From an uncultured delta proteobacterium (GTDB taxonomy: Bacteria; Myxococcota; Myxococcia; Myxococcales; Myxococcaceae), in the NCBI GenBank assembly GCA_963731795.1, contig CAVSWU010000003.1, forward strand, positions 1,030,216 through 1,094,215: a stretch of DNA of 64,000 bases. The letters run 5' to 3'. Below the pieces are notes generated by a model. The model had not been told where the DNA came from and did no database searches. It worked only from the letters and a program-made list of their open reading frames with translations. Made by a program: the position numbers and the translations under genes. Shown here piece by piece: positions 7,622 to 64,000 of the stretch (the first letter of the stretch is position 1; every line of letters begins with the position of its first letter).

Positions 7622-8861
7622 TCAGAAGAGGATCGAGAAGCCGGCGTAGAAGCTCACGTTGTTGAGGACGTCCGAGGAGGGCTCCGCGACCAGGTCCCTC
7701 CCGAGGATGATGTCCTCGCGGTAGTTCTTCTTGGTCTTGGGGTCCACGCCGTCGAACTTCTGGAACTGGCAGCTCCCGCTGAGCCCCAGGTTCTCGAAGG
7801 ACTGGTTGCCGGCGCGCGCGGACTCCATCTTCTCGAAGTCGGCCAGGTTGCAGCCGTCCACCCGGTCCACGCGCGCGGTGTAGACGAGATCCCTCACCTC
7901 GAGGCGCAGCGCGTACGAGTCACCGAACTGCACGCGGAAGCCACCGCCCACCGAGCCCAGGAACTTGAGCCCCGTGTCCCCGAAGCGCGCTGGGACGTTG
8001 TACGTCTCGCCGTCCACCTCGTTGGAAACCTGCGGCCGGATCAGGTGCCGCGTCCCGCCGAGGCCCGCGCCGCCGCTGAGGATCAGGCTGAACTGCGCCA
8101 GGTGGTTCGTCGTAGAAGGCGAACTTGCCGTAGAGCGGCGTCACCTCGACGCCCGCCTGCGCGCCCCACGACAGCAGCAGCGACGAGGCCGCCTGCGCCT
8201 GCTCGCGCACCTTGTCGATCAGCTCCAGGTTGAAGGGGCTCTCGTTGGAGTACCAGTTGTACTGGCCCGTCAGCTGGAGCGCGAAGTTCTCCTGCAGGTG
8301 GTAGATGTAGTTGAGCGCGCTGCCCACGTGGTTGGTGAACTTGCCGTTCACCTGCACCGCCAGCGGGTAGAGCGCGAACTCGTGCCGGCCCTCGTCCGCG
8401 AAGGGCTTCTTCTGGACGATGTGCACGGAGACGTTCGGGTTGTAGAGCGGCGCGCCGTTCACCAGCCGCTGCTGCTCGGGCGTCGTCGTGCGCAGCTCCG
8501 TGTCCACCTCCGCCACCGTGGGCGCGTCCTTGGCCGGCTTCGACTCGGCGGGCGCGGCCGCCTCGGCCGGTGCCGGAGCCTGCTCGGAGGCAGGAGGCTG
8601 GGCGGCCTCGAGCTCCTCGTCCTCGTCTTTCTTGGAGCGCGCACGCGCCGCGGGCTGGGGCTGATCGCCGGGCACGGCCGTCCCCATCTCGCGAGCAGGC
8701 GAGGACTCGGGGCGCGCCCCGGGCGCCGCCGGAGCTGCCGCCTGGGGCGGAACGGAGCCCTCGGCTCCCGGCGCGGGCACCGTGGGTTCGGATTTCACGA
8801 CGGTGGGCTCGGCCCCGACGACCGTCGACAGGAGGACCGCGAAGGACAGGATCGTTCGCAT
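7622..8861 (-). CDS. outer-membrane beta-barrel protein of about 410 aa (NfsB/GltB-like); one frameshift near 8090
   Basis: The signal peptide is MRTILSFAVLLSTVVGA. An Ala/Pro-rich linker is followed by the barrel. The N-terminal part (ORF 7920..8861) is natural up to ...LYGKFAFYDE, and the C-terminal part (ORF 7622..8017) ends ...YAGFSILF with a terminal Phe. Confidence 0.55.
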
Positions 8862-8866
8862 GGGTT

Positions 8867-9688
8867 CTAGAAGAGGAAGGTGTAGCCGACGTCGAACTGG
8901 ACCAGGTGCGTGAGCCCCGGGTGGAGCGCGGGCGTGCCCGTCTCTCGGCCCGCCTCCCAGTCATCCCGAGATAGATCCATGCGGTAGGCGTCGCGGAACA
9001 CCCAGTCCCGCAGCTCCAACTTCACGCCGTGCCGCTCGAAGGCGAAGAACCGGAAGCCCAGCGCCGCGCTCACCACCGGGGCCACCCGCGTCTCCTTCAC
9101 CCAGAAGCTCTCGGTGGCGGTGGAGCGCTCCAGCGGATCCGTGCGGTTGTCGCAGATGCCCAGGTCCCGGTTCACCACGTTGGCGCACTGGATCAGCGAC
9201 TGGCGCTGGAACGAGCCCACCCCGCCCCCCGCCCACAGGTACGCCTGGAAGTGCGCGGGCACCTCCGCCATCAGCGACAGCTTGCCGTACACCGGCGCCC
9301 ACCGCACGCCGATGACGCCGTGGAGATTCATCCGCCACAGGTCCTCGAGCTCGTCGGTGACCTTCTTGTCATCCCGGGTCAGGAAGCTCTCGGAGATGGA
9401 GCGCGCCAGGCCCGTCTGTCGGCTGAACGCGTAGCCCGCCCGGCCTTCCACGGCGAGCGTGTCGAACAGGTTGTAGGCCACGCCCACGTCCATGGTGTAG
9501 TGGGCCGTGAGGTAGGTGAACACCGAGATGCCCAAGCTCGGAGACAGCTCGAGGTTGCCCGCCGGCCGGTAGAGCCGGTTGCGGACGACGGCTGGCTCCA
9601 GGAGCTGCTCCTGCTGCCCGGCGGCGCTCAGGGCCGTCAGGGCCAGGATCATCGTGGAGAGCACGCGAAGCGAACGGACGGTCAACAT
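8867..9688 (-). CDS. outer-membrane beta-barrel protein of about 274 aa (NfsA/GltA-like), intact
   Basis: The signal peptide is MLTVRSLRVLSTMILALTALSAAGQ. It has alternating amphipathic strands and the C-terminus ...DVGYTFLF. It is a paralogue of the adjacent barrel gene. Confidence 0.6.
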   Translation of the reverse strand: MLTVRSLRVLSTMILALTALSAAGQQEQLLEPAVVRNRLYRPAGNLELSPSLGISVFTYLTAHYTMDVGVAYNLFDTLAVEGRAGYAFSRQTGLARSISESFLTRDDKKVTDELEDLWRMNLHGVIGVRWAPVYGKLSLMAEVPAHFQAYLWAGGGVGSFQRQSLIQCANVVNRDLGICDNRTDPLERSTATESFWVKETRVAPVVSAALGFRFFAFERHGVKLELRDWVFRDAYRMDLSRDDWEAGRETGTPALHPGLTHLVQFDVGYTFLF

Positions 9689-9725
9689 GGCGCATCCAAG
9701 TGCACATCCGATGCCCCACGGGCAA

Positions 9726-9757
9726 GATGCACGAGCCCCCCGACCGTGCATTTTTTT
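9726..9757 (+). terminator. intrinsic-terminator-like hairpin (ATGCACG-N11-CGTGCAT) followed by T7, oriented on the plus strand
   Basis: The sequence is gATGCACGagccccccgacCGTGCATTTTTTTcac. A T7 run is rare at this GC content. No annotated plus-strand gene lies upstream of it. Confidence 0.3.
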
Positions 9758-9859
9758 CACGGACGAAGCCCCCATCGCCCGGTGGATGACGTTTCTGTCA
9801 GCTCAAGCGGGAGCCGCAAGGCACGCAACGGGCACACCCCGCGCGGGTTCCACGGTAAG

Positions 9860-10249
9860 ATGGAGTGGGAGGCCAATCCGACCTCAATGAATGAAGCCAG
9901 GAGCCCTGTCGTGAGCGGTCCCGAGCGTCGCCGTCACACCCGCTACAAGGTTCGGCTGAGCATCGAGTTCCTGCGTGGCGAGGCCGAGGTCGCCGGGGAG
10001 ATCTTCAACATCTCCTGCTCCGGCTGCCTGCTCGTCACGCCCGTGGCCCTGCAGGTGGGAGAGCGCGTCGAGGTCTATCTGCCCGAGCTCGGCCGGCCCC
10101 CGGAGGCCTTCCGGGTGGTGCGTACCCGTCCGCTGGGCTCGTGGTACGCCGTGAGCGTGGAGTTCCAACCTCACCTCCCGGACGACGCAGTGCTGGCCAG
10201 GCTCGCCAGCCAGGAAGAGACGCCGGAGGATCCCGAGCAGATCTTCTGA
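9860..10249 (+). CDS. PilZ-domain c-di-GMP receptor (129 aa)
   Basis: It has RRRHTRYKV ... GEIFNISCSGCLLVT, matching the RxxxR and (D/N)xSxxG PilZ motifs. Confidence 0.7.
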   Translation: MEWEANPTSMNEARSPVVSGPERRRHTRYKVRLSIEFLRGEAEVAGEIFNISCSGCLLVTPVALQVGERVEVYLPELGRPPEAFRVVRTRPLGSWYAVSVEFQPHLPDDAVLARLASQEETPEDPEQIF

Positions 10250-41151: not shown

Positions 41152-41305
41152 GAGGGTCAAGTCTACGGGGGGTTCCCCAAAGGCCGGTAGCAAAACAAGT
41201 GGGCCCGACGGAAGAAGGTACGCAGGGCATGCAAGGGAGTCTCCGGCCGGGAGCGTTGGGGTCCCCTGCTTTCCCGCCACCTCCGCTGCTGATACTGGGA
41301 GAATC

Positions 41306-42916
41306 ATGAAGGGCCTGAGCATTGGCAGCAGGTTGATCCTGTCGTTCGCTGTCCTCATCGTGCTGCTCGTCGGCGTAGGTTGGCTGAGCCTGAGCAGGAT
41401 GGCCGCGCTCGACGAGTCGCTCGAAGAGGTGGCGAGCAAGCGCTGGACCCAGGTGCGCCTCTCGCAGGACGCCATGCACCGGGCGGAAGAGAACAGCCGG
41501 CTCACCCTGGCGATGTTCCTCGTCACGGATCGCGCGGAGCTCGACCGGCTCCTGGCCCAGCAAGAAGAAAACAGGCGCACCATCAACGCGCTGATGAGCA
41601 GAATCGAGGGGGCCCTCGAGCATGCCAGGGGCAAGTCCCTCTTCGCCGACGTGAAGGCCCTGCGAGCCCGCTACGTGGACAGCTTCACGCGCGTCCGCAC
41701 CTTGCTGCAACAGGAGAAGCGGAGCGAGTCGATGGACCTGATGGTCCGAGAGGTGATCCCCAACATCGCGAACCTCGAGCGCGCGTGGTCCGAGTTCGTC
41801 GACTATCAGGGCGAGCTGCTGACCGAGGATGCCGTGCTGAGCACGGTCACGTATCAGCGTGCTCGCGCGCTGGTCCTGGCCATGATCGCCGCGGCGGTGG
41901 TGCTGGCGGCGCTGCTCGGCCTCGCCGTCACCCGCAGCATCACCGTGCCCATTGGCCAGGTGGTGGCGCTGACGGCCCGCATCGCCCAGGGCGACCTTCA
42001 GCAGAAGATCGAGATCACCCGGCACGACGAGACAGGCCAGCTCCAGGCGGCGGTGAAGGAGATGTCCGAGCGGCTGGCGGCGATCATCAGCCAGGTGCGC
42101 GCCGGGGCCACGGCGTTGAACTCCGCGTCAGCGCAGGTCTCGTCCACCGCCCAGCTCGTCGCCCAGGGCAGCAGCGAGCAGGCCGCTTCGGTGGAGGAGA
42201 CCACCGCCAGCCTCGAGGAGATGTCGGCCTCCATCAGCCTGAACGCCGAGAACAGCCGCCGGACCGAGCAGACGGCCCTCCAGGGCGCCCGGGACGCGGA
42301 GGCGAGCGGCAAGGCGGTGAGCGAGACCGTGACGGCCATGAGGGAGATCGTCGAGAAGATCTCGATCATCGAGGAGATCGCCTACCAGACCAACCTGCTC
42401 GCGCTGAACGCCGCGATCGAGGCGGCCCGCGCCAGCGAGCATGGCCGGGGCTTCGCGGTGGTGGCCACGGAGGTGCGCAAGCTCTCCGAGCGGAGCCAGC
42501 TCGCCTCCAAGGAGATCAGCGGGCTGGCGGGCTCGAGCGTCCCCGTGGCCGAGGACTCGGGCCGGCGGCTCACCGCGCTGGTCCCCTCGATCCGGGCCAC
42601 GGCGGAGCGAGTCCAGGAGGTGGCCATGGCCTCCCGGGAGCAGTCGGCCAAGGTGACGCAGATCGGCACGACCATGGGCCTGCTGAACCAGGTCACCCAG
42701 CGCAATGCCTCGGCCGCCGAGGAGCTGGCGGCCACGGCCGAGGAGCTGGCCGCGCAGGCGGACTCGCTGCAGCAGCTCATGTCCTACTTCTCCGTGGACG
42801 TGAGGGCCGAGCTTCTCCCTCCGCGCGCCCAGCCACGCCTGGGGCCTCCGGGCTCCCACCAGGGAGCAAACCGTCACAATCCGGCGGACTTGACCCCGGG
42901 CACCTTGGCGGTGTGA
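41306..42916 (+). CDS. methyl-accepting chemotaxis protein (4HB sensor - HAMP - MA domain), 536 aa, orphan
   Basis: It has two TM segments, a HAMP domain, and the highly conserved MA core [41 protein letters not shown]. Confidence 0.8.
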
Positions 42917-45378: not shown

Positions 45379-47619
45379 ATGGACATCCGAACCCAGAGCG
45401 CGCTCCTCGCGTCCCTCCTCGGCCTGGCGCTCGGGCTGTCGATGCTGCTGCGGCCAGGCAGGCCGCGGGTGGTGACGCTGTATTCCGTCTTCGCCCTGAC
45501 TGTGGCGGGGTACTACCTCGCGCTCTTCTTCGCCGGCATCTTCCCCGAGCCGGGATGGGTGTCCAGAATCGCCGTGGGCGCCACCATCCTGCTGGCCTCC
45601 TTCGTTCCCGGCACGGCCGTCTCCTTCTTCCTGGAGTTCCTGGGTGTCAGCAAGGGCACCCACATGCTCGGCCGGCGGCTGGCCCTGCTCTCGAGCGTGT
45701 TCGGTGTGGTGGTGGCGCGTCACCCCGCTGGCGCAGACGAACTGGGCGCGGCTGGCCACGGGCGGGTGGGTGCTCGGTCACCCTGCTCACCTCGGTGAGC
45801 CTGCTGCTGAACCGGGTGCGCACCCAGGAGTCGCGCATTGAACGGTTGCGGCTCATGTACCTGGCCATCGGGGCCGGGGCCTCCGTCCTGCTGACGGCGC
45901 TGGAGCTGGTGGGCCGGCGCTATGACATCCCCCTGCCTCCGCTGGGGCCCATCTTCTCCACGCTCTACCTCTTCTTCCTGGCCCAGACGCTGCTGCGGCT
46001 GCGGCTGATGGACCTGCACGAGCTGCTGGGGAAGATCGCCTCGCAGACGGTGCTGGCCTTCATCCTCGCCGCCGTCTTCACGGTGCTCACCGCCTGGGTG
46101 AAGGAGAAGACGGGCCTGTTCGTCTTCAACACGGTGGTGGCCGCCTTCGTCATCATCATCCTCATGGAGCCGCTGAGGGTGAAGGTGGAGGAGCAGGTGG
46201 TGGCCATCTTCTTCCGCGAGCGCTTCGAGCTGCTGCGCGCGCTGGGAGCGCTCCGGGCGCGCATGGCCACCGTCATCGACATCTCCGAGGTGACGCGGAT
46301 GCTGCTGGACGCGCTCCACGAGACGGGCCGCATCACCCACGCCTCCGTGTACATGCTGGCGGAGGCTCGGCCGGGCTACCGGCTGCTGGACTCGCGCGGC
46401 CCGCCGCCCGAGGGCTTCCTGGATACGGCCGCGGCGCGCGGGCTGCTCCTGGCGGCCGCCTCGGGACAGAAGGCCGTGCTGCTGGAGAACGTGGAGAACC
46501 GGCTCACGGACGCTGCGGGTGCAGGCCACCGAGGGCAAGCGCTTCCGCGACGAGATCAAGCGCCTGCAGGACACCCGCGCCTCGCTGCTGCAGATGAAGT
46601 CCGGCATCTCCGTGCCCCTGGTGGGCAATGATCGGGTGATCGGCTTCCTGAACCTGTGGGACGAGCGCGTGCCAGAGGCCTACGCCTCGGATGAGATCGC
46701 CCTCATCCTCTCGGTGGCCGAGCGCGTGGCCACGGTGCTGGAGAACTCGAAGCTGTACGAGAAGATCCGCGAGCGCGATCGCCTGGCGGCGCTGGGTGAG
46801 ATGGCGGCGGGCCTGGCGCATGAGATCCGCAACCCGCTGGGCGCCATCAAGGGCGCGGCGCAGTGCCTGGATCCCAAGCGGCTACCGGGCGAGGACGGCG
46901 AGTTCTTGGGCGTCATCGTCGAGGAGGTGAACCGGCTCAACGGTGTGGTGACGGCGTTCCTGGACTACGCGCGCCCGCTCAAGCAGAGCTTCGGGCCCAC
47001 CGATCTCAACGAGGTGGTGGCGCGCACCATGCGCCTCATCCAGAACGACGTGCCCAAGCAGATCGAGTTGGCGCTGCAGTTGGATCTGACGGTGCCGCGC
47101 GTGGACGCGGACGCCGAGCAGCTCAAGCAGGTGCTCATCAACCTGGTGCAGAACGCGGTGCAGGCCACCGGCGAGGCCCCCGGCCGCATCACCGTGGGCA
47201 CGGTGAAGCCGGACCGCTTCAGCGACTTCCGGGGCAACATGAACGAGTTCGTCGAGGTCCAAGTCTCCGACACGGGGCCCGGCATCCCCCTGGACCAGCA
47301 ACAGCACATCTTCGTGCCCTTCTTCACCACCAAACAGAAGGGCACGGGGCTGGGGTTGGCCATCTGTCAGCGCATTGTCAAGAACCATGGCGGCAGCATC
47401 TCCGTCCACAGCAAGCCCGGCGAGGGGTGCTCCTTTGTCATCCGCCTGCCTGCGCTGCCGGCGGAGCCACAGCCGGTAGAGGCCTCCCCTACGGAGGGTA
47501 CGCCCTTGCCCTCGCCCCGGCCTCCGCTCCCTCCTCCAATCGAGGAACCCCGGGAGAGCCCGTCTTCCAAATCCTCAGAGTCCAAGCCCAAGCGAGAAAA
47601 GAAGCGCAAGGCGAGCTGA
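45379..47619 (+). CDS. membrane sensor histidine kinase (multi-TM - GAF - HisKA - HATPase); about 3 frameshifts (about 45715, 45780, 46515)
   Basis: Segments lie in ORFs 45379..45798, 45225..46631 and 46519..47619. The H-box is GLAHEIRNPLGAI, the N-box is LINLVQNAVQA, and G1/G2 are DTGPGIP...GTGLGLAI. There is no receiver domain. Confidence 0.65.
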
Positions 47620-47725: not shown

Positions 47726-48763
47726 ATGAGCAAGCCCATCCAAGTCCTCCTCACCGACGATTCCCCCACGATGCTGCAGGTCCTCACGCGGCTGCTGTCA
47801 GCCCAGCCGGACGTGACCGTGGTGGGAACCGCTCGCGACGGCGAGGAGGCCGTCGTGCTGGCGCGCTCCCTGAAGCCGGATGTCATCACCCTGGACGTGC
47901 AGATGCCGGGGATGGATGGCCTGGGCGCCACCGAGCGCATCATGGCGGAGACGCCCTGCCGCATCCTCATGGTCTCGGGCGCGCCGGACACGGACCTGTC
48001 CTTCCGCGCGCTGCAGGCCGGAGCGCTGGAGGTGATCTCCAAGCCGCAGGGCTCGCCGGAGGACGTGGCGCGCTTCGGGGTGCGGCTGCTGTCCGCCATC
48101 CGACTGTTGGCCGAGGTGAAGCTCGTCACCCAGCGCCGCGAGGGCCACGCCACCGCGCCCGCGCTGCCATCGAACGCGCGCGTGGCGGGCTTCGCGCTGT
48201 CCTCGTCCATCGGCGGGCCTACGGCGCTGGCCTCGCTGCTGTGGCTGTTGCCGCGCAGCCTGCCCTTCCCGCTCTTCATCGCCCAGCACATCACCCCGGG
48301 TTTCACCGTGGGCCTGCACCGGTGGCTCTCGTCGCTGTCTCCGCTGCCGGTGGAGATCGCCCGCGCCTCCGAGCAGCCCCGGGCCGGCACCGTCTATCTC
48401 GCGCCGGACGGCCACCACCTCCGGGTGGGCATGCAGGGCGAGCTCGTCATCGAGAAGGCCTCGGGCAGCACCTTCCCCTCGGGAGATCTGCTGCTGGCGT
48501 CGCTGTCGCGCGCCTTTGGCTCCCACGCCGCCGGCGCGGTGCTCAGCGGCATGGGCGAGGAGGGCGCGGTGGGCCTGATGGCCATCAAGCGCGCCGGCGG
48601 GCTCACCTTCGCGCAGGATCCCGAGACGTGCCTGGTGGCGGGGATGCCGGAGGCGGCGCTGCGCAACAAGGCCACCGAGCACCGCGTCTCGCCCGAGGCC
48701 CTGGCCAACATCCTCCGTTCACTCGAGGGCATGCCCCCGCCGGGCACTCCCCCAGGCATCTGA
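47726..48763 (+). CDS. CheB-type response regulator (REC + methylesterase/deamidase domain), copy 1, intact
   Basis: The REC domain has LLTDDSPTML ... DVITLDVQMPGMDG. The CheB catalytic domain has SSSIGGP...FIAQH...GMGEEGAVGL. Confidence 0.75.
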   Translation: MSKPIQVLLTDDSPTMLQVLTRLLSAQPDVTVVGTARDGEEAVVLARSLKPDVITLDVQMPGMDGLGATERIMAETPCRILMVSGAPDTDLSFRALQAGALEVISKPQGSPEDVARFGVRLLSAIRLLAEVKLVTQRREGHATAPALPSNARVAGFALSSSIGGPTALASLLWLLPRSLPFPLFIAQHITPGFTVGLHRWLSSLSPLPVEIARASEQPRAGTVYLAPDGHHLRVGMQGELVIEKASGSTFPSGDLLLASLSRAFGSHAAGAVLSGMGEEGAVGLMAIKRAGGLTFAQDPETCLVAGMPEAALRNKATEHRVSPEALANILRSLEGMPPPGTPPGI

Positions 48764-48842: not shown

Positions 48843-49895
48843 ATGAGCTCCACCATCCGAGTCCTCATCGCGGACGACTCGCCCACCATGCTGAAGATGT
48901 ACTCGGCACTGCTGTCCTCGGCGCCGGACATCCAGGTCATTGGTACGGCTAAGGATGGAGAGGAGGCCGTAGAGCTGGCGCGCACGCTGAAGCCGGATGT
49001 GATCACCCTGGACGTGCGCATGCCGCGCATGGACGGCATCGAGGCCAGCTCGCGCATCATGAATGAGGCCCCGAGCCGCATCCTGGTCATCTCGGGGGCG
49101 GTGGACGCGGAGATGTCCTTCAAGGCGCTGCAGGCCGGAGCGCTGGAGGTCATGCCCAAGCCGCGCCCCGGCCTGGAGGGCCTGGCCAACTTCGGCGTGA
49201 AGCTGATCCACATCATCCGGACGATGGCCGAGTTGCCGCTGGCCGAGCGCCGGCCGTCTCCCCCTCCCGTCCAGGCTCCAGTGCCCACGGTGCCCGCGCA
49301 GCAGGCCCGGGTGAATGGCTTCGGGCTGGTGGCCTCCACGGGCGGTCCGCCCGCGCTCTGCCTGCTGCTGTCGCTGCTGCCGCCGAAGCTCCCCTACCCC
49401 ATCTTCATCGCCCAGCACGTCTCGGACGGCTTCACCGCGGGGCTGTGCCAGTGGCTGGGCGCCGCCTCCACGCTGCAGCTCGAGGTGGCGCAGACGGGCA
49501 CCCGGCCCCAGGCGGGCTATGTCTACCTGCCACCGGACGGGCACCAGCTGCAGGTGATGCTGACGGGAGAGCTGCTCGTGGAGCCCATCCCGGCCGCCAA
49601 GGCCGCGCTCGGGGATACGCTGCTGGCCTCGCTGGCGCTCGCCTACGGCAACCGGGCCGGGGGCGCGGTGCTCACGGGCATGGGCTCGGATGGAGCCTCG
49701 GGGCTGCTGGCCATCCGTCGCGCGGGAGGGATCACCTTCGCGCAGAGCCCGGAGAGCTGTGTCGTCCCCGGCATGCCCGAGGCGGCGCTGCGCAACGGCG
49801 CCACCGACACCGTCCTGTCGCTGGAGGGCCTGGCCTCGGCCATGCGCGCCCTCACCGGCTCGGCCCCGCCGACGACCCCGCCCGTTCGCAACTGA
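48843..49895 (+). CDS. CheB-type response regulator, copy 2, intact
   Basis: It has the same architecture as copy 1 and is very similar to copy 3. Confidence 0.75.
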   Translation: MSSTIRVLIADDSPTMLKMYSALLSSAPDIQVIGTAKDGEEAVELARTLKPDVITLDVRMPRMDGIEASSRIMNEAPSRILVISGAVDAEMSFKALQAGALEVMPKPRPGLEGLANFGVKLIHIIRTMAELPLAERRPSPPPVQAPVPTVPAQQARVNGFGLVASTGGPPALCLLLSLLPPKLPYPIFIAQHVSDGFTAGLCQWLGAASTLQLEVAQTGTRPQAGYVYLPPDGHQLQVMLTGELLVEPIPAAKAALGDTLLASLALAYGNRAGGAVLTGMGSDGASGLLAIRRAGGITFAQSPESCVVPGMPEAALRNGATDTVLSLEGLASAMRALTGSAPPTTPPVRN

Positions 49896-50062: not shown

Positions 50063-51107
50063 ATGAACAAGCCGATTCAGGTCCTCCTTGCGGATGACTC
50101 GCCCACCATTCTGCGGATGTTCACCGGATTGCTCGCCGCCGCCCCGGACATCCGGGTCATCGGCACAGCGAATGATGGAAAGGAAGCGGTGGCGATGACC
50201 CAGTCGCTCCGCCCGGACATCGTCACCCTGGATGTGCGGATGCCCGCGGATGGACGGCATCGAGGCCAGCTCGCGCATCATGAGCGAGGCCCCGAGCCGC
50301 ATCCTGGTCATCTCGGGGGCGATGGACGCGGAGCTGTCCTTCAAGGCGCTGCAGGCCGGAGCGCTGGAGGTGATGGCCAAGCCGACTCCCGGCAAGGAGG
50401 GCGGCCTGACGGGCTTCGGCAACCAGCTCATCCACACCATCCGGGCGATGGCGGAGATCCCCCTGGCTACACGCAAGCTGGTGCTCGGCCACCCGGCGCC
50501 GCCGCCGCTGCTGCGCGGAGGGCGGGTGAACGGCTTCGGGCTGGTGGCCGCCACGGGAGGCCCGCCCGCGCTGGCCATGTTGCTGTCGCTGCTGCCTCCG
50601 AGCCTTCCGTACCCGCTCTTCATCGCCCAGCACGTGTCGGTGGGCTTCACCTCGGGCCTGCGCCAGTGGCTGAGCGCGGCCTCGCCGCTGCAGCTGGAGG
50701 TGGCGCGCACGGGCACCCGGCCCCAGCCGGGCCACGTCTACCTGGCTCCGGACGGGCACTTGATGCAGGTGCTCATGACGGGCGAGCTGCTCGTGGAGTC
50801 GGTCCACGGCCGCCACGTGACGGCGGGAGACACGCTGCTGACCTCGCTGGCGCGCGCCCATGGAAACCGGGCTGGGGGCGCGGTGCTCACGGGCATGGGC
50901 ACGGACGGAGCCATGGGGCTGCTGGCCATCCGTCGCGCGGGAGGCCTGACGCTCGTGCAGAGCCCCGAGAGCTGTGTCGTCTCGAGCATGCCCGAGTCGG
51001 CGCTGCGCATGAGGGCCGCGGAGACGTCGCTCACCATCGATGCGCTGGCCTCGGCCATGCGTGCGCTCTCGGGCGCGCTGCCCACGGCCCTGGGCATGCG
51101 GAGCTGA
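50063..51107 (+). CDS. CheB-type response regulator, copy 3; one frameshift near 50245
   Basis: The N-terminus is [20 protein letters not shown]...LDVRMP. An indel follows, and the rest lies in ORF 50232..51107 ([25 protein letters not shown]...). The nucleotide sequence around the shift is nearly identical to copy 2. Confidence 0.65.
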
Positions 51108-56599: not shown

Positions 56600-57667
56600 A
56601 TGCTCTCGACCTCCCAGCTCACCTTCCGCGAGAAGACCCTCGCCGACCCGCATGAGGCGGCGGACTCACCGCGCCGTCCCGAGCGCGAGGCGCTGCTCCA
56701 GGCGCGCATCAAGGATCTCAAGCTCCACCTGAAGGGCACGGCCCTGGAGCGGTTCATCCAGCAGCTCTACGCCGAGCTCGAGGCCAAGGGCATCTCCTTC
56801 CGGCCGGAGTGCTACCTGTCGGATCAATGGGGCTGCCCCTCCGGCGTGCCGGTGATCGGGCTGCCGTTCTATCTGGCGGACCCGCGGCTGCACTCCATCG
56901 AGGCGGAGCTGAGCGGCGACGCGGAGACAGAGCGCGAGATCCTCATGTACCTGCGCCACGAGGCAGGGCACGCGTTCAACTACGCCTACCGCCTCTACGA
57001 CACGGACGAGTGGCGGAAGATCTTCGGGGACTACTCCAAGCCCTACAACGAGAACTACAAGCCACGGCCGTTCAGCCGGAAGTACGTGGCGCACATCTCC
57101 GGCTGGTACGCGCAGAAGCACCCGGACGAGGACTTCGCCGAGACGTTCGCGGTCTGGCTGACGCCGGGGCTGGATTGGGGCAAGCGCTACGCGGGCTGGG
57201 GCGCGCTCAAGAAGCTCCAGTACGTGGACGAGGTGATCAAGCGCGTGGGCCGTACGCCGCCGCTCGTGCAGCTGGCCGAGCGGGATCTCGACGTGGAGGA
57301 CATGGAGGAGACGGTGCTCGATCACTACCGCCAGCGCCAGCTCGAGGAGCGCGTGGAGCTGTCGCTGCGCGAGCACCTGGATCAGGATCTGCTAGGGCTG
57401 TTCGAGCCGCCGGACACCGCGCCCGCCAGCGCCGAGACGCTCATCCGCGCCGAGCGCCAGTCCCTGATCCAGTCGGTGACGCAGTACAGCGGCGTGGGCC
57501 GCCCGGTGGTGGTGTCGCTGGTGGACCACCTGCTGGAGCGCGCCACCGCGCTGCGCCTCTCCATCCACCTGGACAAGACGCGCGAGTACCTCACCAAGCT
57601 CACCTCGTTGGTGACGGCGCTGGCGATGAACTACCTCTACACGGACCGCTTCTTCGAAGTGGACTGA
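56600..57667 (+). CDS. putative zinc-dependent peptidase of the family usually paired with ATP-grasp ligases (Peptidase_Mx-like)
   Basis: It has the HEAGHAF (HExxH) motif. It lies 70 nt upstream of the ATP-grasp gene. Confidence 0.55.
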   Translation: MLSTSQLTFREKTLADPHEAADSPRRPEREALLQARIKDLKLHLKGTALERFIQQLYAELEAKGISFRPECYLSDQWGCPSGVPVIGLPFYLADPRLHSIEAELSGDAETEREILMYLRHEAGHAFNYAYRLYDTDEWRKIFGDYSKPYNENYKPRPFSRKYVAHISGWYAQKHPDEDFAETFAVWLTPGLDWGKRYAGWGALKKLQYVDEVIKRVGRTPPLVQLAERDLDVEDMEETVLDHYRQRQLEERVELSLREHLDQDLLGLFEPPDTAPASAETLIRAERQSLIQSVTQYSGVGRPVVVSLVDHLLERATALRLSIHLDKTREYLTKLTSLVTALAMNYLYTDRFFEVD

Positions 57668-57736: not shown

Positions 57737-58813
57737 ATGCCGGTACCGCCTCTCAAGATCGCCATCCTGCACTACCAGCCGGACGGAGAGCCGGTGGACC
57801 CCGTCGTCACCCAGGTGGGCGAGGCCCTCAAGCAGCTGGGCCATGAGGTGTGCACCATCGCCGTGAGCGACCGCGTCTTCGACATCCTGCACGAGATCGA
57901 TCGCTCGAAGTGCGGCCTGGTGTTCAACCTCTGCGAGACGTTCGCGGAGGACTACCGGATGGAGGTGAACGTCGCGGCGCTGATGGAGATGGCGCGGGTG
58001 AAGTTCACCGGCTCGGGGACGGCGGGGCTGCTGCTGGCGCAGGACAAGATCCTCACCAAGCAGCTGCTGGAGTACCACGAGATCCCCACGGCCGACTTCG
58101 CCACCTTCGACGGCGTCACCGTGGAGACCCATGGGGGCCTGGAGTTCCCGCTCATCGTGAAGCCGTCGCGCAGTGATGCGTCCATCGGCATCGGGAAGAA
58201 GTCGCTGGTGCGCACGTGGGAGGAGCTGACGCGACGGGTGCAGGAGATCCGCAAGGAGCTGCAGGACGAGGCGCTCGCGGAGGAGTTCATCGAGGGGCGC
58301 GAGGTATATGTGGGCGTGATCGGCCCCAAGGAGATGCCGGAGATCCTCCCGATCGTCGAGCTGGACTTCGGCAACTGGGACAAGAGCAAACCGACCATCT
58401 CCGACCGGGAGGTGAAGTTCGGCCCTGAGACGGAGGGCTCTCCGAAGCTCGTGATCGCGAGGAACATCCCGCCGGAGCTGCGCGAGCGCGTGGAGCGGGC
58501 CGCCCTGCTGGCCTACCGGGCGCTCAAGCTGCAGGACTACGCGCGCATCGACTTGCGCATCTCGGAGGAGGGAGATCCGTACGTCCTCGAGGTGAACCCG
58601 AACCCGTACCTGGAAGACAAGAGCGAGCTGGCGCTGGGAGCCCGTGAGAAGGGCATGTCCTTTACGCAGCTCGTGGGGCGCATCCTCGAGTCGGCGGCGA
58701 AGCGCTACGGGCTGCTGCAGAAGGCGGAGAAGACGCCGGCGGCCTCGAAGGCCGAGCATCCCGCCTCGAAGGCCGAGCCCGAGATTCCGCCCACGGCGAA
58801 CGCAGCCGGCTGA
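57737..58813 (+). CDS. ATP-grasp ligase (D-Ala-D-Ala ligase / RimK-like fold)
   Basis: The N-terminus is a pre-ATP-grasp, and the central domain is FPLIVKPSRSDASIGI...EFIEGREVYVGVIG...LEVNPNP. Confidence 0.65.
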   Translation: MPVPPLKIAILHYQPDGEPVDPVVTQVGEALKQLGHEVCTIAVSDRVFDILHEIDRSKCGLVFNLCETFAEDYRMEVNVAALMEMARVKFTGSGTAGLLLAQDKILTKQLLEYHEIPTADFATFDGVTVETHGGLEFPLIVKPSRSDASIGIGKKSLVRTWEELTRRVQEIRKELQDEALAEEFIEGREVYVGVIGPKEMPEILPIVELDFGNWDKSKPTISDREVKFGPETEGSPKLVIARNIPPELRERVERAALLAYRALKLQDYARIDLRISEEGDPYVLEVNPNPYLEDKSELALGAREKGMSFTQLVGRILESAAKRYGLLQKAEKTPAASKAEHPASKAEPEIPPTANAAG

Positions 58814-58856
58814 GCCGGAGCGGCCCTCCCCCGCCCCCCCGCTCTCCGGGAGAGGC

Positions 58857-59258
58857 TCACGGCTGCCGGAAGGCCTCGCTCACGGCGGCAGTGTCCCCAA
58901 AGACACGGACGGACACAGCCTTCCCGCCACGCAACGTCCAGACGTGCACCCAGGCGTTCTCATAGGTGCGACCGGTCGGCTTTGCTCGCACCTTCTCCCA
59001 ACCGAGCACCACCACCTGCTCGCCCTGGGCGATGAACTCCCGGGGCTCGAATGTCAGCGACTCGCTCGAGCCCTTGATGGCGCTCACGAGCCGCCGGATG
59101 CCCTCATGCCCCTTGAACTCGCCAGCCAGGGGCACATGGGCCGGGTATGGGTTGGCCCAGACGATGTCCGTCGAGAACCCGGCCAGCACGGCCTCGAGGC
59201 TCCCGCTGTCATAGGCCGCGTAGACGTCCTTCACCGCTCTCAGGTTGGACTCGATCAT
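58857..59258 (-). CDS. SnoaL-like / NTF2-fold protein (133 aa)
   Basis: It has the size and pattern typical of polyketide-cyclase-like NTF2 proteins. Its start is 3 nt after the stop of the upstream LLM gene. Confidence 0.5.
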   Translation of the reverse strand: MIESNLRAVKDVYAAYDSGSLEAVLAGFSTDIVWANPYPAHVPLAGEFKGHEGIRRLVSAIKGSSESLTFEPREFIAQGEQVVVLGWEKVRAKPTGRTYENAWVHVWTLRGGKAVSVRVFGDTAAVSEAFRQP

Positions 59259-59260
59259 GC

Positions 59261-60310
59261 TCAGCCCGCGGCGACACGGCGCTCCGTAGCAGGTACCTGG
59301 GTGCTCGGGGACAGGCGCACCGAGGCCTGCTTCAACGCCAGGTCGATGTGGTGGAACTCCTCTTCGTGCGGAGGAACATCGAGGATGAGGGTGTCGATCC
59401 CCCGCTGCACCAGTGAGTTGATGAGCGCGGCGACCTGGGCGTGATCGCCCACGAAGTACGGGCAGTCGGCCTTGAAGTTGCGGAACGGCTCCAGCCAGAA
59501 GCCTTGCCGCGCCGCGGCGGCTCCCTCCGCGACCATCTTCATCCGCCACTTCCACTCGGCGTCGGTGTTGCGCATGGAGAGCTCGAGCACGCTCTGCCCC
59601 AGAGGATCCTCGGGGAACAGGGCGCGAGCGGCCTCCCAGGCCTCGGCCTCCCGCGGACGGGTGATGATGCCGAAGTGGACGCCACGCACGCCCGCGCGCA
59701 GCCCCTGCTCCAGCGTGGCCGGCAGCATCTGCATGCTCACCGCGCCGAGCGCCCCCGCCGTCCGCAGGGCCGCCTCCGACTGGCCAGCCAGCAGCAGGCC
59801 CGGCTGGAGCGCCTGGGGAGTCCTCGGCAGGAGCTGCAGGTTGGACACGCGGTAGTGCTTCCCCTCGTACGTGACGGAAGGCTCGGCGAGCAACCGCTTC
59901 ATCACCTCGGCGTACTCGCGCAGCCGATCGTACCGCTCGTCGTGCGGCAGCCGATCGTCCATGGACTGCTGGTAGCTGAGCGCCGCGCCCGTGACGAGGT
60001 TCACGTACGTCCGGCGCCCGTAGAGGTGGGCGAACGAGGAGATGAACTTCGCTGCCGTGAACGGGTGCATGTAGATGGGGTTGATGGCCACCAGCGGCGA
60101 GAGCTGCTTCGTCTCGGCCATCACCCGCTGCGCCACCACCCAGGGCTCGATGATGACATCGTTGCCCGTGAAGATGAGCAGGCCGGTGTAGCCGTAGCGG
60201 TCGCTCAGCCGCATGACGGTCTCGATGTTCTTCCAGTACAGCGATTCGTCCGGGGTGCGAGGGCTGACCGTGAAGAGCTCCACTGCACCGTGAGCCAGTT
60301 CGAGTTTCAT
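59261..60310 (-). CDS. LLM-class (luciferase-like) flavin-dependent oxidoreductase (349 aa)
   Basis: It has a TIM-barrel LLM pattern and a strong SD (AGGAGG) 6 nt upstream. Its ATG overlaps the FMO stop. Confidence 0.6.
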   Translation of the reverse strand: MKLELAHGAVELFTVSPRTPDESLYWKNIETVMRLSDRYGYTGLLIFTGNDVIIEPWVVAQRVMAETKQLSPLVAINPIYMHPFTAAKFISSFAHLYGRRTYVNLVTGAALSYQQSMDDRLPHDERYDRLREYAEVMKRLLAEPSVTYEGKHYRVSNLQLLPRTPQALQPGLLLAGQSEAALRTAGALGAVSMQMLPATLEQGLRAGVRGVHFGIITRPREAEAWEAARALFPEDPLGQSVLELSMRNTDAEWKWRMKMVAEGAAAARQGFWLEPFRNFKADCPYFVGDHAQVAALINSLVQRGIDTLILDVPPHEEEFHHIDLALKQASVRLSPSTQVPATERRVAAG

Positions 60311-61389
60311 GCTGCCTCCTGCTGAGGGTGTGAGGGGCCCACCGGAATGGCGCGGCCCGAGCGCTCGGCGATATGGGAGGCGAGGAAGGCGGCATCCCGC
60401 CCCACGCCTCCGAGAAGAGAAGAGTTGGCCCGGTAGAGCCACTTGAGGCCGAGGAAGTAGAGCCCCGGGCGCGCGGTGACGCCCCGTGAATGAACGGGCC
60501 TGCCGCCCGCGTCGAGCACGGGCACCTCCAGCCAGGAGTAGTCCGGGCGGAAGCCGGTGGCCCAGACGATGGCGTCCACCTCCAGCGCCTGCCCATCCAC
60601 GAAGGTGACGCGGTGCCCCTCCACGTCCTTCACCCGAGGCCGCAGCACCAGGCCGTGCATGCGCGCCAGCTCCTCGGGCCCCGGGCCGATGATGCCATCC
60701 GGCCCCTGGCTCATCCGCCGGCCCAGCCAGGAGTCCACGGTGACCTCCGTGAGCCGCAGCAGGTGGGCCCACCAGAAGTAGTCCCGCCCCAGCATGCGCC
60801 GCGGGCTGGCCGCCGTCCTCCCGAGCGCGAGGTGCACCTCGTGGCTGGCCGCCAGCTCCCGGGCGATGCCCGCCCCGGAGTTGCCGCAGCCGACCACGAG
60901 CACCCTCCCCCGCGGGAGCTGCGACGGGTTGCGGTACAGGCTGCTGTGGAGCTGAACCAGCTGGGGGCTGGCCCGCTCCAGGCTCACGGGCAGTAGCGGC
61001 CGCGTGAAGGGCCCCGTCGCGCAGACGACGTTGCGCGCCTCGAAGACGGTGTCCGCCGTACGCACCACGTAGGCGTCCCCCTCCGCGCGCACGGAGCTCA
61101 CCCGCGTCCCCAGCCGCAGGGGCAGCTCGAAGGCCCTGGCATAGCTCTCGAGGTAGTCCGCCACCTCGTCCTTGCTGGGGAAGGTCCACGGCTCCCTCGG
61201 GAACGGCATCCCAGGGAGATCGTTGTACGGGCACGGCGTGATGAGCCGGAGCGAATCCCACCGGGATCGCCAGGAATGGCCCACCTGCTCCGCCGCCTCC
61301 AGGATGAGGAAGCGTCGGCCCTGCCGAGCGAGCTGGTAGCCCAGGGCGAGGCCGGCCTGACCTCCGCCGATGATGAGGACGTCGTGCAT
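60307..61389 (-). CDS. FAD/NAD(P)-binding flavin-containing monooxygenase-like oxidoreductase (361 aa)
   Basis: It has VLIIGGGQAGLALG (FAD GxGxxG) and a second VLVVGCGNSGAGIA (NADPH) motif. Confidence 0.65.
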   Translation of the reverse strand: MHDVLIIGGGQAGLALGYQLARQGRRFLILEAAEQVGHSWRSRWDSLRLITPCPYNDLPGMPFPREPWTFPSKDEVADYLESYARAFELPLRLGTRVSSVRAEGDAYVVRTADTVFEARNVVCATGPFTRPLLPVSLERASPQLVQLHSSLYRNPSQLPRGRVLVVGCGNSGAGIARELAASHEVHLALGRTAASPRRMLGRDYFWWAHLLRLTEVTVDSWLGRRMSQGPDGIIGPGPEELARMHGLVLRPRVKDVEGHRVTFVDGQALEVDAIVWATGFRPDYSWLEVPVLDAGGRPVHSRGVTARPGLYFLGLKWLYRANSSLLGGVGRDAAFLASHIAERSGRAIPVGPSHPQQEAA

Positions 61390-61400
61390 GATCCTCTCCG

Positions 61401-64000
61401 TTACCGAGGCTCGGCGCGCGCCACGGACATCCGCAGCGTCGCCGCCAGGGAATCCACGCCCGACGAGGCGAGGAGCGAGTAGTGGTCTCCCGCGAGGGTG
61501 CGCGTCTCCAGGCGGCCCACCCAGGGACGCCAGCCCGCGTCCTCCGCGCGCGCCAGGGGATCGTCCGCCGCCCGCAGGGACACCACGGGGACGTCCACCT
61601 TCCGAGGCGTCCATTGATCCATGGCCCGCGTGTGGGCCTCGAAGACCCCCAGCAGGCGCTGGAGCTGCGGCAGGTCCACATCTCGCGCCACCAGGTCGGC
61701 TTCGTGCGCCTGCTCCAGCGCGAAGGCCAGCCGCGCCTCGGCCTTCAGCGACCGAAGCTGCGCCACTGGCAGGGTGAAGGGCTTGCCGCCCGTGCTGGCG
61801 ATGTCCTGGATGAACCAGGCCACGCGCTCCGCGTCATCCACCCGAGCCAGCTTCCCGGGCGCTGGGCTGTCGATGAGCGCCACCAGCGCCACCTCCTGCC
61901 CGAGTTCACGCAGCCGACGCGCCATCTCCAGCGCGACCAGTCCGCCCATGGACCAACCGCCCAACAGGTACGGCCCCGAGGGCTGCACCGAGCGCACGGC
62001 CTCGACGTACTCGTGTGCCATGGCGACCAGGTCCTCCCGAGGCTCCTGATCCCCGAGGAAGCCCCGCGCCTGCAGTCCATAGACGGGGCGCTCCCGGCCG
62101 AACCGCTGCGCCAGCTCGCGGTAGCACAGGACATTGCCGCCCACCGGGTGCACGAGGAAGAGCGGCCTGCCCTGGCCCTGCGAGTGCAGGAGCACCAGCG
62201 GCGACCACGCGGCGGCGGGCGCACTGCCGCGCACCAGGGACGCGAGGTGCGCGAGCGTGGGCTCCTGCACCAGCGCCGTGAGTGGGAGCTCCCGCCCGAA
62301 CTGCTGGCGGATGCGCCCCATCACCCGCACCAGCGCGAAGGAGTGCCCGCCCAGCTCGAAGAAGTTGTCATGCCGGCCCACCTGGGAGACGCCCAGCACC
62401 TCTTCCCAGATACGGGCCAGCGCCTGCTCCAGCTCGTCCCTCGGGGCCTCGAGGCCACGCTCGCGCCGGGCGCCTGGCTCCTCCGGGGCCGGGAGCGCCT
62501 TGCGGTCCACCTTGCCATTGGCCGTCAGGGGCAGCCGCTCCAGCGGGAGGAAGAGCGAAGGCACCATGTAGCGCGGCAGCTTCGTCTCCAGGTACGCGCG
62601 CAGCTGCGCGAGGGTGTCGGCGGGATCGCCGTCAATGACGACATAGGCCACCAGGCGCTTGTCCCCCAGGCGCTCCCCGTGGGCCGTCACCACCGCCGCG
62701 CGCACGGCCGGGTGCCGCTCCAGGACGGTCTCGATCTCGCCCAGCTCGATGCGGTAGCCCTGCACCTTCACCTGGAAGTCCGCGCGGCCCTGGAACTCGA
62801 TCGAGCCGTCTGGCAGGGAGCGCCCCAGATCTCCCGTCCGGTAGAGGCGCTCCCCCGTCACAGGGTGGCGGACGAAGCGCGCCTCCGTCTTCGCCGAGTC
62901 CTTCCAGTAGCCCTTCGCCAGGCCCACGCCGGCGATGAACAGCTCGCCGGTGACCCAGGTGGGGCGCGGCGCCAACGCCTCATCGAGCACATGGAAGCGC
63001 TGGTTCTTCAGGGGCTTGCCGTAGGGGATGCTCTGCCAGCCGGGATCCACCCGGTCGATGGGGTGGAGGATGGACCAGATGGAGGCCTCGGTCGCCCCGC
63101 CCAGGCTCATCACCTGGATGCCGGGGCGCAGGGCTCGGATGCGATCCGGCAAGGCCACGGGGATCCAATCGCCGCTGAGCATCACCGTGCGCAGCGCCAG
63201 CTCCCCGAGCCACTCCTTCTGTCCCTCCGCGTATTCCACGAGGAGCTGCATGAGGGCCGGCACCGAGTTCCACAGGGTGACCTTCTCCATCCTGAGCAGC
63301 TTCAGCCAGTGGGCCGGATCCTTGGCGGCCCCGGGCGCGGGCAGGACGAGGGCGCCGCCCGCGGCGAGCATGCCGAAGAGATCGTAGACGGACAGATCGA
63401 AGGTGAGCGCCGAGAGCGCGAGCACCCGATCCGAGGGCCCCACGCCGAACCGCTCGTTGAGATCCACGAGGGTGTTGGCCGCGCCGCGATGGTCGATCAT
63501 CACGCCCTTGGGCTCACCCGTGGAGCCCGAGGTGAAGATGACGTAGGCCAGATCCTCCGGCCGCTGGACGGAGCGGAGGCACGCGTCGCTCTCCCCCTCC
63601 AAGGTCTTCTCGGAGACGGCGATCCGCTGGATGCCCTCGGGCCAGGGGATCCGCGCCTCCAGCCAGGGCTGGGTGAGGACGATGCGGACCTCGCCCTGCC
63701 GCAGCAGGTGGTGGATGCGCTCCGTCGGCCACTCCGGATCAATCGGCAGGTAGGCAGCACCCGCGCCGAGCACGCCGAGCGCGGCCACCACCTGCTCCCA
63801 GCCCTTCTCCATGACGATGGCCACCAGGGTGTTGGGGACCGCGCCGAGCGCGCGGAGCCGGTGGGCCAGCTGGTGGGCCCGTCGCTGCACGGTGCCGTGG
63901 CTGAACGTGCCACGCGGCTCGATGACGGCCGGGTGATCCGGCCGGGCCTCCGCCTGCGCGGCGACGAGCTCGTGGAGGAGCACCTGGGGAATGGGAGCCT
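61401..64000 (-). CDS. terminal NRPS module: adenylation - PCP - thioesterase (C-terminal 860+ aa; the gene continues past the right edge)
   Basis: The A-domain cores are LPIDPEWP (A2), YVIFTSGSTGEPKGV (A3), SGDW..., GELFIAGVGLAKGY (A5), YRTGDL (A7), KVQGYRIELGEIE (A8) and LPLTANGKVDRKAL (A10). The PCP motif is FFELGGHSFAL and the TE motif is GGWSMGG. Confidence 0.85.
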   Translation of the reverse strand, partial: APIPQVLLHELVAAQAEARPDHPAVIEPRGTFSHGTVQRRAHQLAHRLRALGAVPNTLVAIVMEKGWEQVVAALGVLGAGAAYLPIDPEWPTERIHHLLRQGEVRIVLTQPWLEARIPWPEGIQRIAVSEKTLEGESDACLRSVQRPEDLAYVIFTSGSTGEPKGVMIDHRGAANTLVDLNERFGVGPSDRVLALSALTFDLSVYDLFGMLAAGGALVLPAPGAAKDPAHWLKLLRMEKVTLWNSVPALMQLLVEYAEGQKEWLGELALRTVMLSGDWIPVALPDRIRALRPGIQVMSLGGATEASIWSILHPIDRVDPGWQSIPYGKPLKNQRFHVLDEALAPRPTWVTGELFIAGVGLAKGYWKDSAKTEARFVRHPVTGERLYRTGDLGRSLPDGSIEFQGRADFQVKVQGYRIELGEIETVLERHPAVRAAVVTAHGERLGDKRLVAYVVIDGDPADTLAQLRAYLETKLPRYMVPSLFLPLERLPLTANGKVDRKALPAPEEPGARRERGLEAPRDELEQALARIWEEVLGVSQVGRHDNFFELGGHSFALVRVMGRIRQQFGRELPLTALVQEPTLAHLASLVRGSAPAAAWSPLVLLHSQGQGRPLFLVHPVGGNVLCYRELAQRFGRERPVYGLQARGFLGDQEPREDLVAMAHEYVEAVRSVQPSGPYLLGGWSMGGLVALEMARRLRELGQEVALVALIDSPAPGKLARVDDAERVAWFIQDIASTGGKPFTLPVAQLRSLKAEARLAFALEQAHEADLVARDVDLPQLQRLLGVFEAHTRAMDQWTPRKVDVPVVSLRAADDPLARAEDAGWRPWVGRLETRTLAGDHYSLLASSGVDSLAATLRMSVARAEPR

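Follow-up and report, generated by a model that had tools for sequence, protein, structure and literature searches.

The downstream end of a probable cysteine-incorporating non-ribosomal peptide synthetase operon from a Hyalangium-like myxobacterium

Organization of the operon

The window analysed here, a 64,000-nucleotide stretch of contig CAVSWU010000003.1 from an uncultured myxobacterium, ends on its right-hand side in four minus-strand genes encoding the 3′ part of an NRPS (non-ribosomal peptide synthetase), a flavoprotein monooxygenase (FMO), a luciferase-like flavin-dependent oxidoreductase (LLM) and a SnoaL-like protein. We regard it as probable, though by no means assured, that these are the last four genes of an orphan operon for a cysteine-containing non-ribosomal peptide in a Hyalangium-like myxobacterium, a reading that takes in the upstream NRPS module and the tailoring steps. 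The G+C content of the window is about 70%, and raw lists of open reading frames (ORFs) are therefore full of spurious frames. A plot of G+C at third codon positions (GC3) resolved four successive coding frames on the minus strand between 58857 and the window end, with switches near 59260, 60310 and 61400. The features of the operon are the following.

61401..64000, minus strand: 3′ part of the NRPS gene, adenylation (A, predicted for Cys)-peptidyl carrier (T)-thioesterase (TE); stop codon at 61401-61403; continues past the window edge
62511..63962, minus strand: adenylation domain; AMP-binding at aa 13-365, AMP-binding_C at aa 421-496; code DLYNMSLIWK
62235..62426, minus strand: peptidyl carrier (T) domain; PF00550, 65 bits; phosphopantetheine-attachment serine of GGHS at aa 550
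61434..62168, minus strand: type I thioesterase (TE) release domain; PF00975, 120 bits; GWSMG nucleophile and GDH histidine
61390..61400, minus strand: 11-nt NRPS/FMO spacer with the ribosome-binding site GGAGAGG, from the junction sequence
60307..61389, minus strand: FAD/NAD(P)H two-dinucleotide-binding flavoprotein monooxygenase (FMO), 360 aa, type II FMO/CzcO-like, from Pfam, motifs and structures
59261..60310, minus strand: luciferase-like (LLM) flavin-dependent oxidoreductase, SsuD-like, 349 aa; PF00296
58857..59258, minus strand: SnoaL_2/NTF2-fold protein, 133 aa, final gene of the operon; PF12680

The NRPS frame runs for 866 codons without a stop up to base 63998; the gene is therefore cut by the window edge. 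The fragment opens with the exact N-terminus of its A domain (APIPQVLLHELV). A Pfam search of 61401-63998 on the minus strand returned AMP-binding (283.6 bits), AMP-binding_C, PP-binding (65 bits) and Thioesterase (120 bits). The AMP-binding, PP-binding and Thioesterase matches are above the Pfam gathering scores, and the core motifs of a termination module are intact: A3 (FTSGSTGEPKG), A7 (YRTGD), A8 and A10 (NGKVDR), the carrier GGHS, and GWSMG and GDH in the thioesterase. Specificity codes were extracted by alignment to a GrsA fragment, and the control returned the textbook GrsA code DAWTIAAICK. The window A domain gave DLYNMSLIWK, which fits the cysteine pattern DLYN[LM]SLIWK and is among the signatures published for Cys-activating domains (PMC12283262). 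This code predicts that the last NRPS module adenylates L-cysteine and loads its own carrier domain. The thioesterase that ends the module is predicted to release the product by hydrolysis or cyclisation.

The genes are tightly packed. The stop codon of the FMO gene and the start codon of the LLM gene share a 4-nt ATGA overlap preceded by AGGAGG, and 2 nt separate the LLM gene from the SnoaL gene. No promoter-like site and no credible terminator were found inside the operon. An earlier note, made from the letters of the window, had described a single minus-strand operon of these four genes, an NRPS truncated by the window edge and a strong Shine-Dalgarno sequence ahead of the LLM gene, and our analysis agrees on each of these points; the four genes are intact, and Pfam and NCBIfam bear out every one of its domain calls. 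The substrate code that it had proposed to extract proved to be a published one. Its account of the spacing, 3-nt gaps or 4-nt overlaps, was right about the overlap and wrong about the gaps, which measure 11 nt and 2 nt.

The complete cluster in relatives

Window positions 58863-64000 have a colinear counterpart in a Hyalangium sp. contig (L001/L080/L090), which is 90.5% identical in nucleotide sequence up to the last window base. The proteins of the four genes share 87.5-92% identity, with 90.8% over all 865 aa of the NRPS. In L080 the NRPS ORF goes on upstream into a heterocyclisation-type (Cy) domain, a T domain, an A domain and the end of a condensation (C) domain. The full locus is present in the metagenome contig L079 and in Archangium sp. 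(L083-85), at 78-82% NRPS identity, and comprises a LysR gene, a single 2416-aa NRPS of organization C-A1-T-Cy-A2(Cys)-T-TE, and the genes for FMO, LLM, the decarboxylase PanP and the SnoaL-like protein. The NRPS of L079 is split into two overlapping frames inside A1, at about 9329-9984; since the gene is one 2416-aa ORF in L083-85, the split is most likely a single-base assembly error of the metagenome contig. Sorangium sp. So ce1078 carries NRPS, FMO, LLM, decarboxylase and LysR genes at 55-61% identity, without a SnoaL gene. An automatically extracted code for its A2 domain, DLYSAAA--K, was discarded as an alignment artefact, and direct alignment to the window protein gives DLYSMSLIWK.

Similarity between the window and its relatives stops at 58863, and both flanks differ in every relative. 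Therefore the cluster spans the interval from LysR to SnoaL. The next genes leftward in the window lie on the plus strand, convergent with the operon, so that 58857 is its end. They encode a D-Ala-D-Ala-ligase-like ATP-grasp protein (57737-58813; 138.6 bits against 243, and below all Ddl cut-offs) and a putative zinc metallopeptidase (56600-57667; Peptidase_Mx, 41.9 bits). Further left lie unrelated genes for two Ser/Thr kinases, an ABC-F protein and three CheB-like proteins. All of these were considered as members of the cluster and set aside, as no relative keeps them beside the operon. Nor is a terminator claimed where the convergent genes end (58805-58865), since the hairpin there folds no better than shuffled sequence (z = -0.52).

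We infer that the cluster extends some 5-6 kb beyond the right-hand edge of the window, over about 4.7 kb of the same NRPS gene and the LysR regulator. The window would then hold the downstream end of a compact bimodular NRPS operon behind LysR, its upstream part being modelled on colinear relatives of 78-91% identity. The earlier note had rightly put the remaining part of the cluster on that side, although this part is small. It had also named two alternatives, that the upstream ORF is something other than an NRPS and that A-T-TE is a stand-alone enzyme. Neither holds in any relative: the ORF continues as Cy, T, A and C in the close ones, and relatives at 78-82% have one C-A-T-Cy-A-T-TE protein. 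The A-T-TE module that it described is correct as far as the window goes, the full module in relatives being Cy-A(Cys)-T-TE.

Modules upstream of the window edge

In relatives, the A1 code is VIWQVTADDK and lacks Asp235. This residue is kept in all domains that activate α-amino acids (PMC12283262). The decarboxylase of the relatives scores 624.9 bits with the PanP model TIGR03799, above the curated cut-off of 606.1, and its gene sits between those for LLM and the SnoaL-like protein. PanP is a pyridoxal phosphate (PLP)-dependent aspartate 1-decarboxylase, converting aspartate to β-alanine. Because A1 lacks Asp235 and most relatives' operons contain PanP, A1 most likely loads β-alanine, or another ω-amino acid such as γ-aminobutyric acid (GABA); a pocket with Asp330 and Asp331 would also suit a longer ω-amino acid of this kind. 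L080, like the window, is without PanP, the LLM and SnoaL genes lying 2 nt apart or overlapping in the two. Since PanP is absent, the window strain and L080 would have to take the A1 substrate from primary metabolism.

The Cy domain ahead of the Cys A domain lies upstream of the window and was studied in L001/L080, L079, L083 and L088. Against solved structures it belongs clearly to the Cy family (EpoB-Cy, 327 bits; Irp2 Cy2, 269; BmdB Cy2, 253), ordinary C domains scoring at most 52 bits. The domain retains the Asp of the dyad as well as the helper Gln (TPHVWIDHQ). In the C domain at the N-terminus of the relatives' NRPS, the HHxxxD motif is intact.

The tailoring enzymes

The start of the FMO was set by the GC3 frame switch and by homologues of 359-361 aa. 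Pfam assigns Pyr_redox_3 (114.5 bits), FMO-like and Lys_Orn_oxgnase, and the motifs GGGQAG, GCGNSG and ATGF are those of a two-dinucleotide-binding, class B-like monooxygenase. The closest solved structures are 4usq, 4usr and 4a9w. These bacterial type II FMOs (CFMO 4USQ, PSFMO 4USR and SMFMO 4A9W) share with the protein a length of about 360 aa and two Rossmann motifs. The best NCBIfam matches, ArsO (210.2 bits against 425) and MSMEG_0569 (260 against 498.35), fall below the curated cut-offs, and neither an ars nor an MSMEG_0567-0572 context is present here. Among LLM loci, an FMO gene accompanies the LLM gene only in the PanP-containing sub-group.

The SnoaL-like protein matches a single Pfam family, SnoaL_2 (PF12680, 64.5 bits), SnoaL proper being PF07366. 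Its closest solved structures are 3fgy, an uncharacterised NTF2-like protein, and TerC (6d34), which we take to be a dehydratase. Among LLM loci its gene is confined to the Hyalangium/Archangium group. Directly after the SnoaL gene of L080 lies a gene for a 224-aa protein (8521-9195, plus strand; also L081 1969-2643 and L082 1929-2603) with a precomputed Pfam match to green fluorescent protein, GFP (PF01353). Its 34 sequence matches in the PDB are without exception GFP-like fluorescent proteins, if weak ones (best E value 2e-4, over residues 11-200). The Pfam and NCBIfam scans of this analysis gave no match for it, and tblastn found no copy in the window.

The LLM is a member of the Bac_luciferase superfamily (PF00296, 122.3 bits against a cut-off of 27.9), and the exact protein is present in a public collection (P0121). 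Its closest solved structure is E. coli SsuD (1M41; profile E value 3.8e-31), an FMNH2-dependent alkanesulfonate monooxygenase of the same TIM-barrel LLM superfamily; the context here is an NRPS and not ssu or tau. The protein scores far under the SsuD cut-offs (TIGR03565, 116.5 against 518.2; NF001939, 118.3 against 510). When a 30-member profile of its clade was compared with E. coli SsuD, Arg226 and His228 fell in a 4-residue segment missing from the clade, and Cys54 was not conserved; we take these three residues to be catalytic in SsuD. Because the SsuD cut-offs are missed and none of the three residues is kept, the sequence evidence is that the LLM is not an alkanesulfonate monooxygenase.

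No other result was as informative as the distribution of the clade. At E values of at most 1e-20, 259 proteins matched. One metagenome scan yielded 80 LLM loci, and in most of those with enough flanking sequence an NRPS lies within 10 kb. Codes were counted over the metagenome LLM loci and L079-L089, which gave 41 LLM loci with an A domain in the flank; in 33 of the 41 the code starts with Val235 instead of Asp235. These codes are of the form VIW[QE]xT[AT]DxK, as in the relatives' A1, or VD[FW]V[VI]S..DK. Three NRPS architectures are spanned by the clade: C-A-T-Cy-A(Cys)-T-TE, C-A-T-TE (L086, L098), and A-T-C-A-T-C with a phosphopantetheinyl transferase (PPTase; L136 and similar). Pfam confirmed the latter two, both without a Cy domain. 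A tie between the clade and Cy-A(Cys)-T-TE was considered and abandoned: the neighbouring NRPS of L086 (1398 aa) is C-A-T-TE with the code VDFVVSSADK, most of the distant loci have NRPSs without a Cys-type code, and a link to Asp235-less A domains is preferred. The LLM thus tracks the module without Asp235 and not the cysteine module, which argues against thiazoline oxidation by this enzyme. We tentatively propose that the LLM belongs to a widespread, uncharacterised SsuD-like clade genetically tied, across at least three NRPS architectures, to Asp235-less modules of the β- or ω-amino-acid type; the clade may carry out a new tailoring of β-alanyl or ω-aminoacyl units such as α-hydroxylation, desaturation or amine oxygenation; we hold this to be possible rather than probable. 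If true, the Hyalangium operon would yield a new β-Ala/Cys-derived heterocycle by way of a non-canonical Cy domain.

Other clusters were found around the same clade. In L086/L095 (1844-21068) and L098, from soil metagenomes, the LLM gene is accompanied by genes for a radical SAM protein, an aminotransferase, a glycosyltransferase, a C-A(VDFVVSSADK)-T-TE NRPS, an ABC transporter, an MbtH-like protein, an ankyrin protein, a penicillin amidase and two carbamoyltransferases. The LLM is found, too, as an LLM-ankyrin fusion (P0133). A recurrent 2155-aa A-T-C-A(VIWEITADDK)-T-C NRPS occurs with the LLM in L136, L145, L134, L150 and similar metagenome loci, the PPTase being confirmed in L136. In these NRPSs the first A domain has unusual codes such as SASTRATSQK, and L126 additionally encodes a 555-aa Pyr_redox_3 protein.

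Proposed pathway and alternative explanations

In the pathway that we favour, A1 would load β-alanine or another ω-amino acid, and the Cy-type domain would couple this ω-aminoacyl unit to the cysteine held as thioester on the second T domain. The same domain would probably cyclodehydrate the product to a 2-(aminoalkyl)thiazoline, and the TE, on the pattern of LynB6 and BarG, would free the thiazoline-4-carboxylic acid. An FMNH2-type reaction of the LLM could then oxygenate the ω-amino-acid-derived part, a choice of substrate proposed because the clade travels with Asp235-less A domains even where a Cys module is lacking. The NAD(P)H/FAD-dependent FMO may perform an N- or S-oxygenation, and the NTF2-fold protein may dehydrate or isomerise the oxygenated intermediate. 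Like the earlier note, we infer an oxidatively tailored non-ribosomal peptide.

Several observations weigh against this pathway. The upstream half of the NRPS is outside the window and is known from relatives only. The window operon has no PanP gene, its LLM and SnoaL genes being 2 nt apart. The A1 pocket VIWQVTADDK is unlike the VD[FW]V[VI]S..DK-type codes, which we take to be the canonical β-Ala pattern, and is closer to what is presumably a 2,4-diaminobutyric acid (Dab) pocket, so that GABA or another substrate is possible. The N-terminal C domain is far nearer to elongation C domains (Txo1, Txo2, TycC) than to starter C domains (CDA, RzmA), and the surroundings of the cluster encode no donor module. 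Nor does the cluster encode a flavin reductase for the LLM. The reactions of FMO, LLM and SnoaL-like protein are putative, being assigned by family resemblance and co-occurrence. Finally, the Cy domain deviates at three conserved sites: PLLMGD stands in place of DxxxxD (the first Asp being Pro, PxxxxD), the dyad Thr is Ala (FASTL), and GNFSTT is found where GDFTS is expected. Mutations of the Asp-Thr dyad severely affect cyclodehydration, and the roles of the Cy residues have been described (PMC9547227). Because of these three deviations, cyclodehydration by the Cy domain is not assured. The same deviations are seen all through a large cyanobacterial clade of Cy-A-T-TE proteins, which are about 1400 aa long, have a TubC-type docking domain at the N-terminus and rank next among the relatives of the terminal module. 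Proteins annotated as pyochelin synthetase retain the canonical Cy motifs.

The best placed of the alternatives, which we nevertheless find rather unlikely, makes the LLM and a SnoaL-like dehydratase a flavin route from thiazoline to thiazole. C5 hydroxylation would be followed by loss of water, with or without decarboxylation, in a non-homologous analogue of the diiron enzymes LynB7/BarH or of NRPS oxidase (Ox) domains. The position of the LLM and NTF2-fold genes directly behind a terminal Cy-A(Cys)-T-TE module fits this scheme, as does the dehydratase that TerC, a solved homologue of the SnoaL-like protein, presumably is. No Ox (nitroreductase-type) domain and no LynB7 or BarH homologue was found among the Pfam domains of the relatives' clusters, and LynB7 offers a precedent for C5 hydroxylation, dehydration and decarboxylation after release (PMC10127204). 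The distribution of the LLM speaks against it: the clade occurs in clusters without a Cy domain (C-A(VDFVVSSADK)-T-TE, L086 and L098; A-T-C-A-T-C, L136 and others like it), in which no Cys-type code was found, and it co-varies with the Asp235-less A domain and not with cysteine. Moreover, the Sorangium version has no SnoaL gene.

It is unlikely that the Cy domain only condenses and that the free Cys thiol is the site of oxidation. In such a scheme the FMO would S-oxygenate the thiol to a sulfenate or sulfinate and the LLM would carry out sulfur-centred or C-S chemistry, giving a sulfinate, sulfonate or dehydroalanine-type product. Sulfonate and sulfone monooxygenases are the solved structures nearest to the LLM, and those nearest to the FMO (4usq, 4usr and 4a9w) are enzymes that we take to catalyse sulfoxidation. 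The Cy domain has lost the Thr of the dyad and two Asp residues, the first of DxxxxD and that of GDFTS; mutations of the dyad have a severe effect on cyclodehydration (PMC9547227). However, it retains the catalytic Asp and the helper Gln, and its deviations are shared by the whole cyanobacterial Cy-A-T-TE clade. The LLM, for its part, lacks Arg226, His228 and Cys54 of SsuD, scores far under the SsuD cut-offs, and belongs to a clade found also in NRPS clusters without a Cys-type code.

That the FMO is an NAD(P)H:flavin reductase feeding a two-component LLM, rather than a tailoring oxygenase, appears very unlikely. The ATGA overlap of the two genes, their adjacency in L079, L080, L083, L088, L092 and L094, the lack of a canonical flavin reductase in the cluster and weak matches to thioredoxin-reductase-like proteins would all suit a reductase, but the best FMO matches are deposited as monooxygenases and most of the more distant LLM loci have no such partner. 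Lastly, that the three small genes are unrelated neighbours outside the NRPS pathway, for instance catabolic enzymes, is hardly credible: FMO, LLM and SnoaL-like protein miss all equivalog cut-offs and have no curated function, yet their genes are translationally coupled or nearly abutting, and their order is kept from 91% to 55% NRPS identity (Hyalangium, Archangium, Sorangium) while both flanks change.

Comparison with known systems

No paper on this cluster was found in literature searches aimed at the cluster itself. Its architecture is closest to LynB6/LynB7 of lyngbyapeptin B and BarG/BarH of barbamide. In these pathways the TE of LynB6 or BarG releases a 2-substituted thiazoline-4-carboxylic acid, on which a separate downstream oxygenase then acts, and the last NRPS, C-A-PCP-Cy-A(Cys)-PCP-TE (PCP, peptidyl carrier protein), has the same layout as that of the relatives (PMC10127204). 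BarH was considered as an LLM and rejected, being a diiron enzyme (PMC10127204). No LynB7/BarH-type diiron (amidohydrolase-fold) oxygenase is among the Pfam matches of the operon or of the relatives' clusters. Here, in contrast, tailoring falls to an FMO, an LLM and an NTF2-fold protein, module 1 is of the ω-amino-acid type and not for Ala, the Cy motifs deviate, and the cluster has no upstream polyketide synthase/NRPS assembly line.

Bleomycin BlmIV has the organization C-A(β-Ala)-PCP-Cy-A(Cys)-PCP-Cy and forms an aminoethyl-thiazoline unit, internal to a very large assembly line and with an associated Ox domain. It shares with the relatives' NRPS an Asp235-less, β-alanine-type module followed by a Cys heterocyclisation module, whereas its A1 code is of the VDWVISLADK type and that of the relatives VIWQVTADDK. 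Clusters of the pyrrolizixenamide/legonmycin type combine a bimodular C-A-T-C-A-T-TE NRPS, with Ser/Thr and Pro modules, and one Baeyer-Villiger flavin monooxygenase. They resemble the present cluster in their compact bimodular NRPS with TE and in the flavin monooxygenase beside it, which remodels the product after release; the present cluster differs in its second module, Cy-A(Cys), and in having two different flavoenzymes. The bacillamide system BmdA/BmdB/BmdC (5T3E, 7LY4; PMC8795117) is likewise small, with three components: a PLP decarboxylase preparing a substrate for the NRPS, the NRPS itself with Cy-A(Cys)-T, and a flavin oxidase. BmdB ranks among the best solved matches for the A part as well as for the Cy part. 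The system differs in having an aromatic amino acid decarboxylase where the relatives have PanP (and the window none), in the families of its flavoenzymes, and in release by a terminal C domain instead of a TE.

Other loci in the window

Three further loci lie to the left of the operon. An ORF of 798 aa (30857-33253, minus strand) carries the complete set of Major Vault Protein domains, namely MVP_shoulder (153.5 bits) and Vault, Vault_2, Vault_3 and Vault_4 repeats; the protein that it encodes is a bacterial homologue of the protein forming the vault shell in eukaryotes. Tandem CheB-like methylesterase genes occupy 47726-48763, 48843-49895 and 50232-51107 on the plus strand (CheB_methylest, 161-163 bits each), the first two with receiver domains; a GAF histidine kinase gene (46519-47619) precedes the trio, and a methyl-accepting chemotaxis protein (MCP) gene is nearby (40754-42916). 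A match to SelA, L-seryl-tRNA selenium transferase (476.7 bits), covers residues 259-617 of a 639-codon stop-to-stop frame at 39751-41670 on the minus strand, which overlaps the MCP frame of the opposite strand.

Significance

The cluster is an orphan assembled from known kinds of parts and is ordinary as a class. Myxobacterial genomes hold many orphan NRPS clusters, among which this one is unexceptional but makes a reasonable target for genome mining. Because it is small, with one bimodular NRPS and three or four enzymes in about 11-12 kb, heterologous expression should be easy. It is kept from Hyalangium and Archangium to Sorangium and is found in many soil metagenomes. What is unusual is the pairing of a cysteine module carrying an atypical Cy domain with an ω-amino-acid module and an LLM clade that consistently accompanies such modules. 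The association of the LLM with Val235 codes and the variant Cy domain are most worth following up. Once the product is solved, the LLM clade, the CzcO/type II FMO that partners it and the variant Cy domain would all gain assigned functions.

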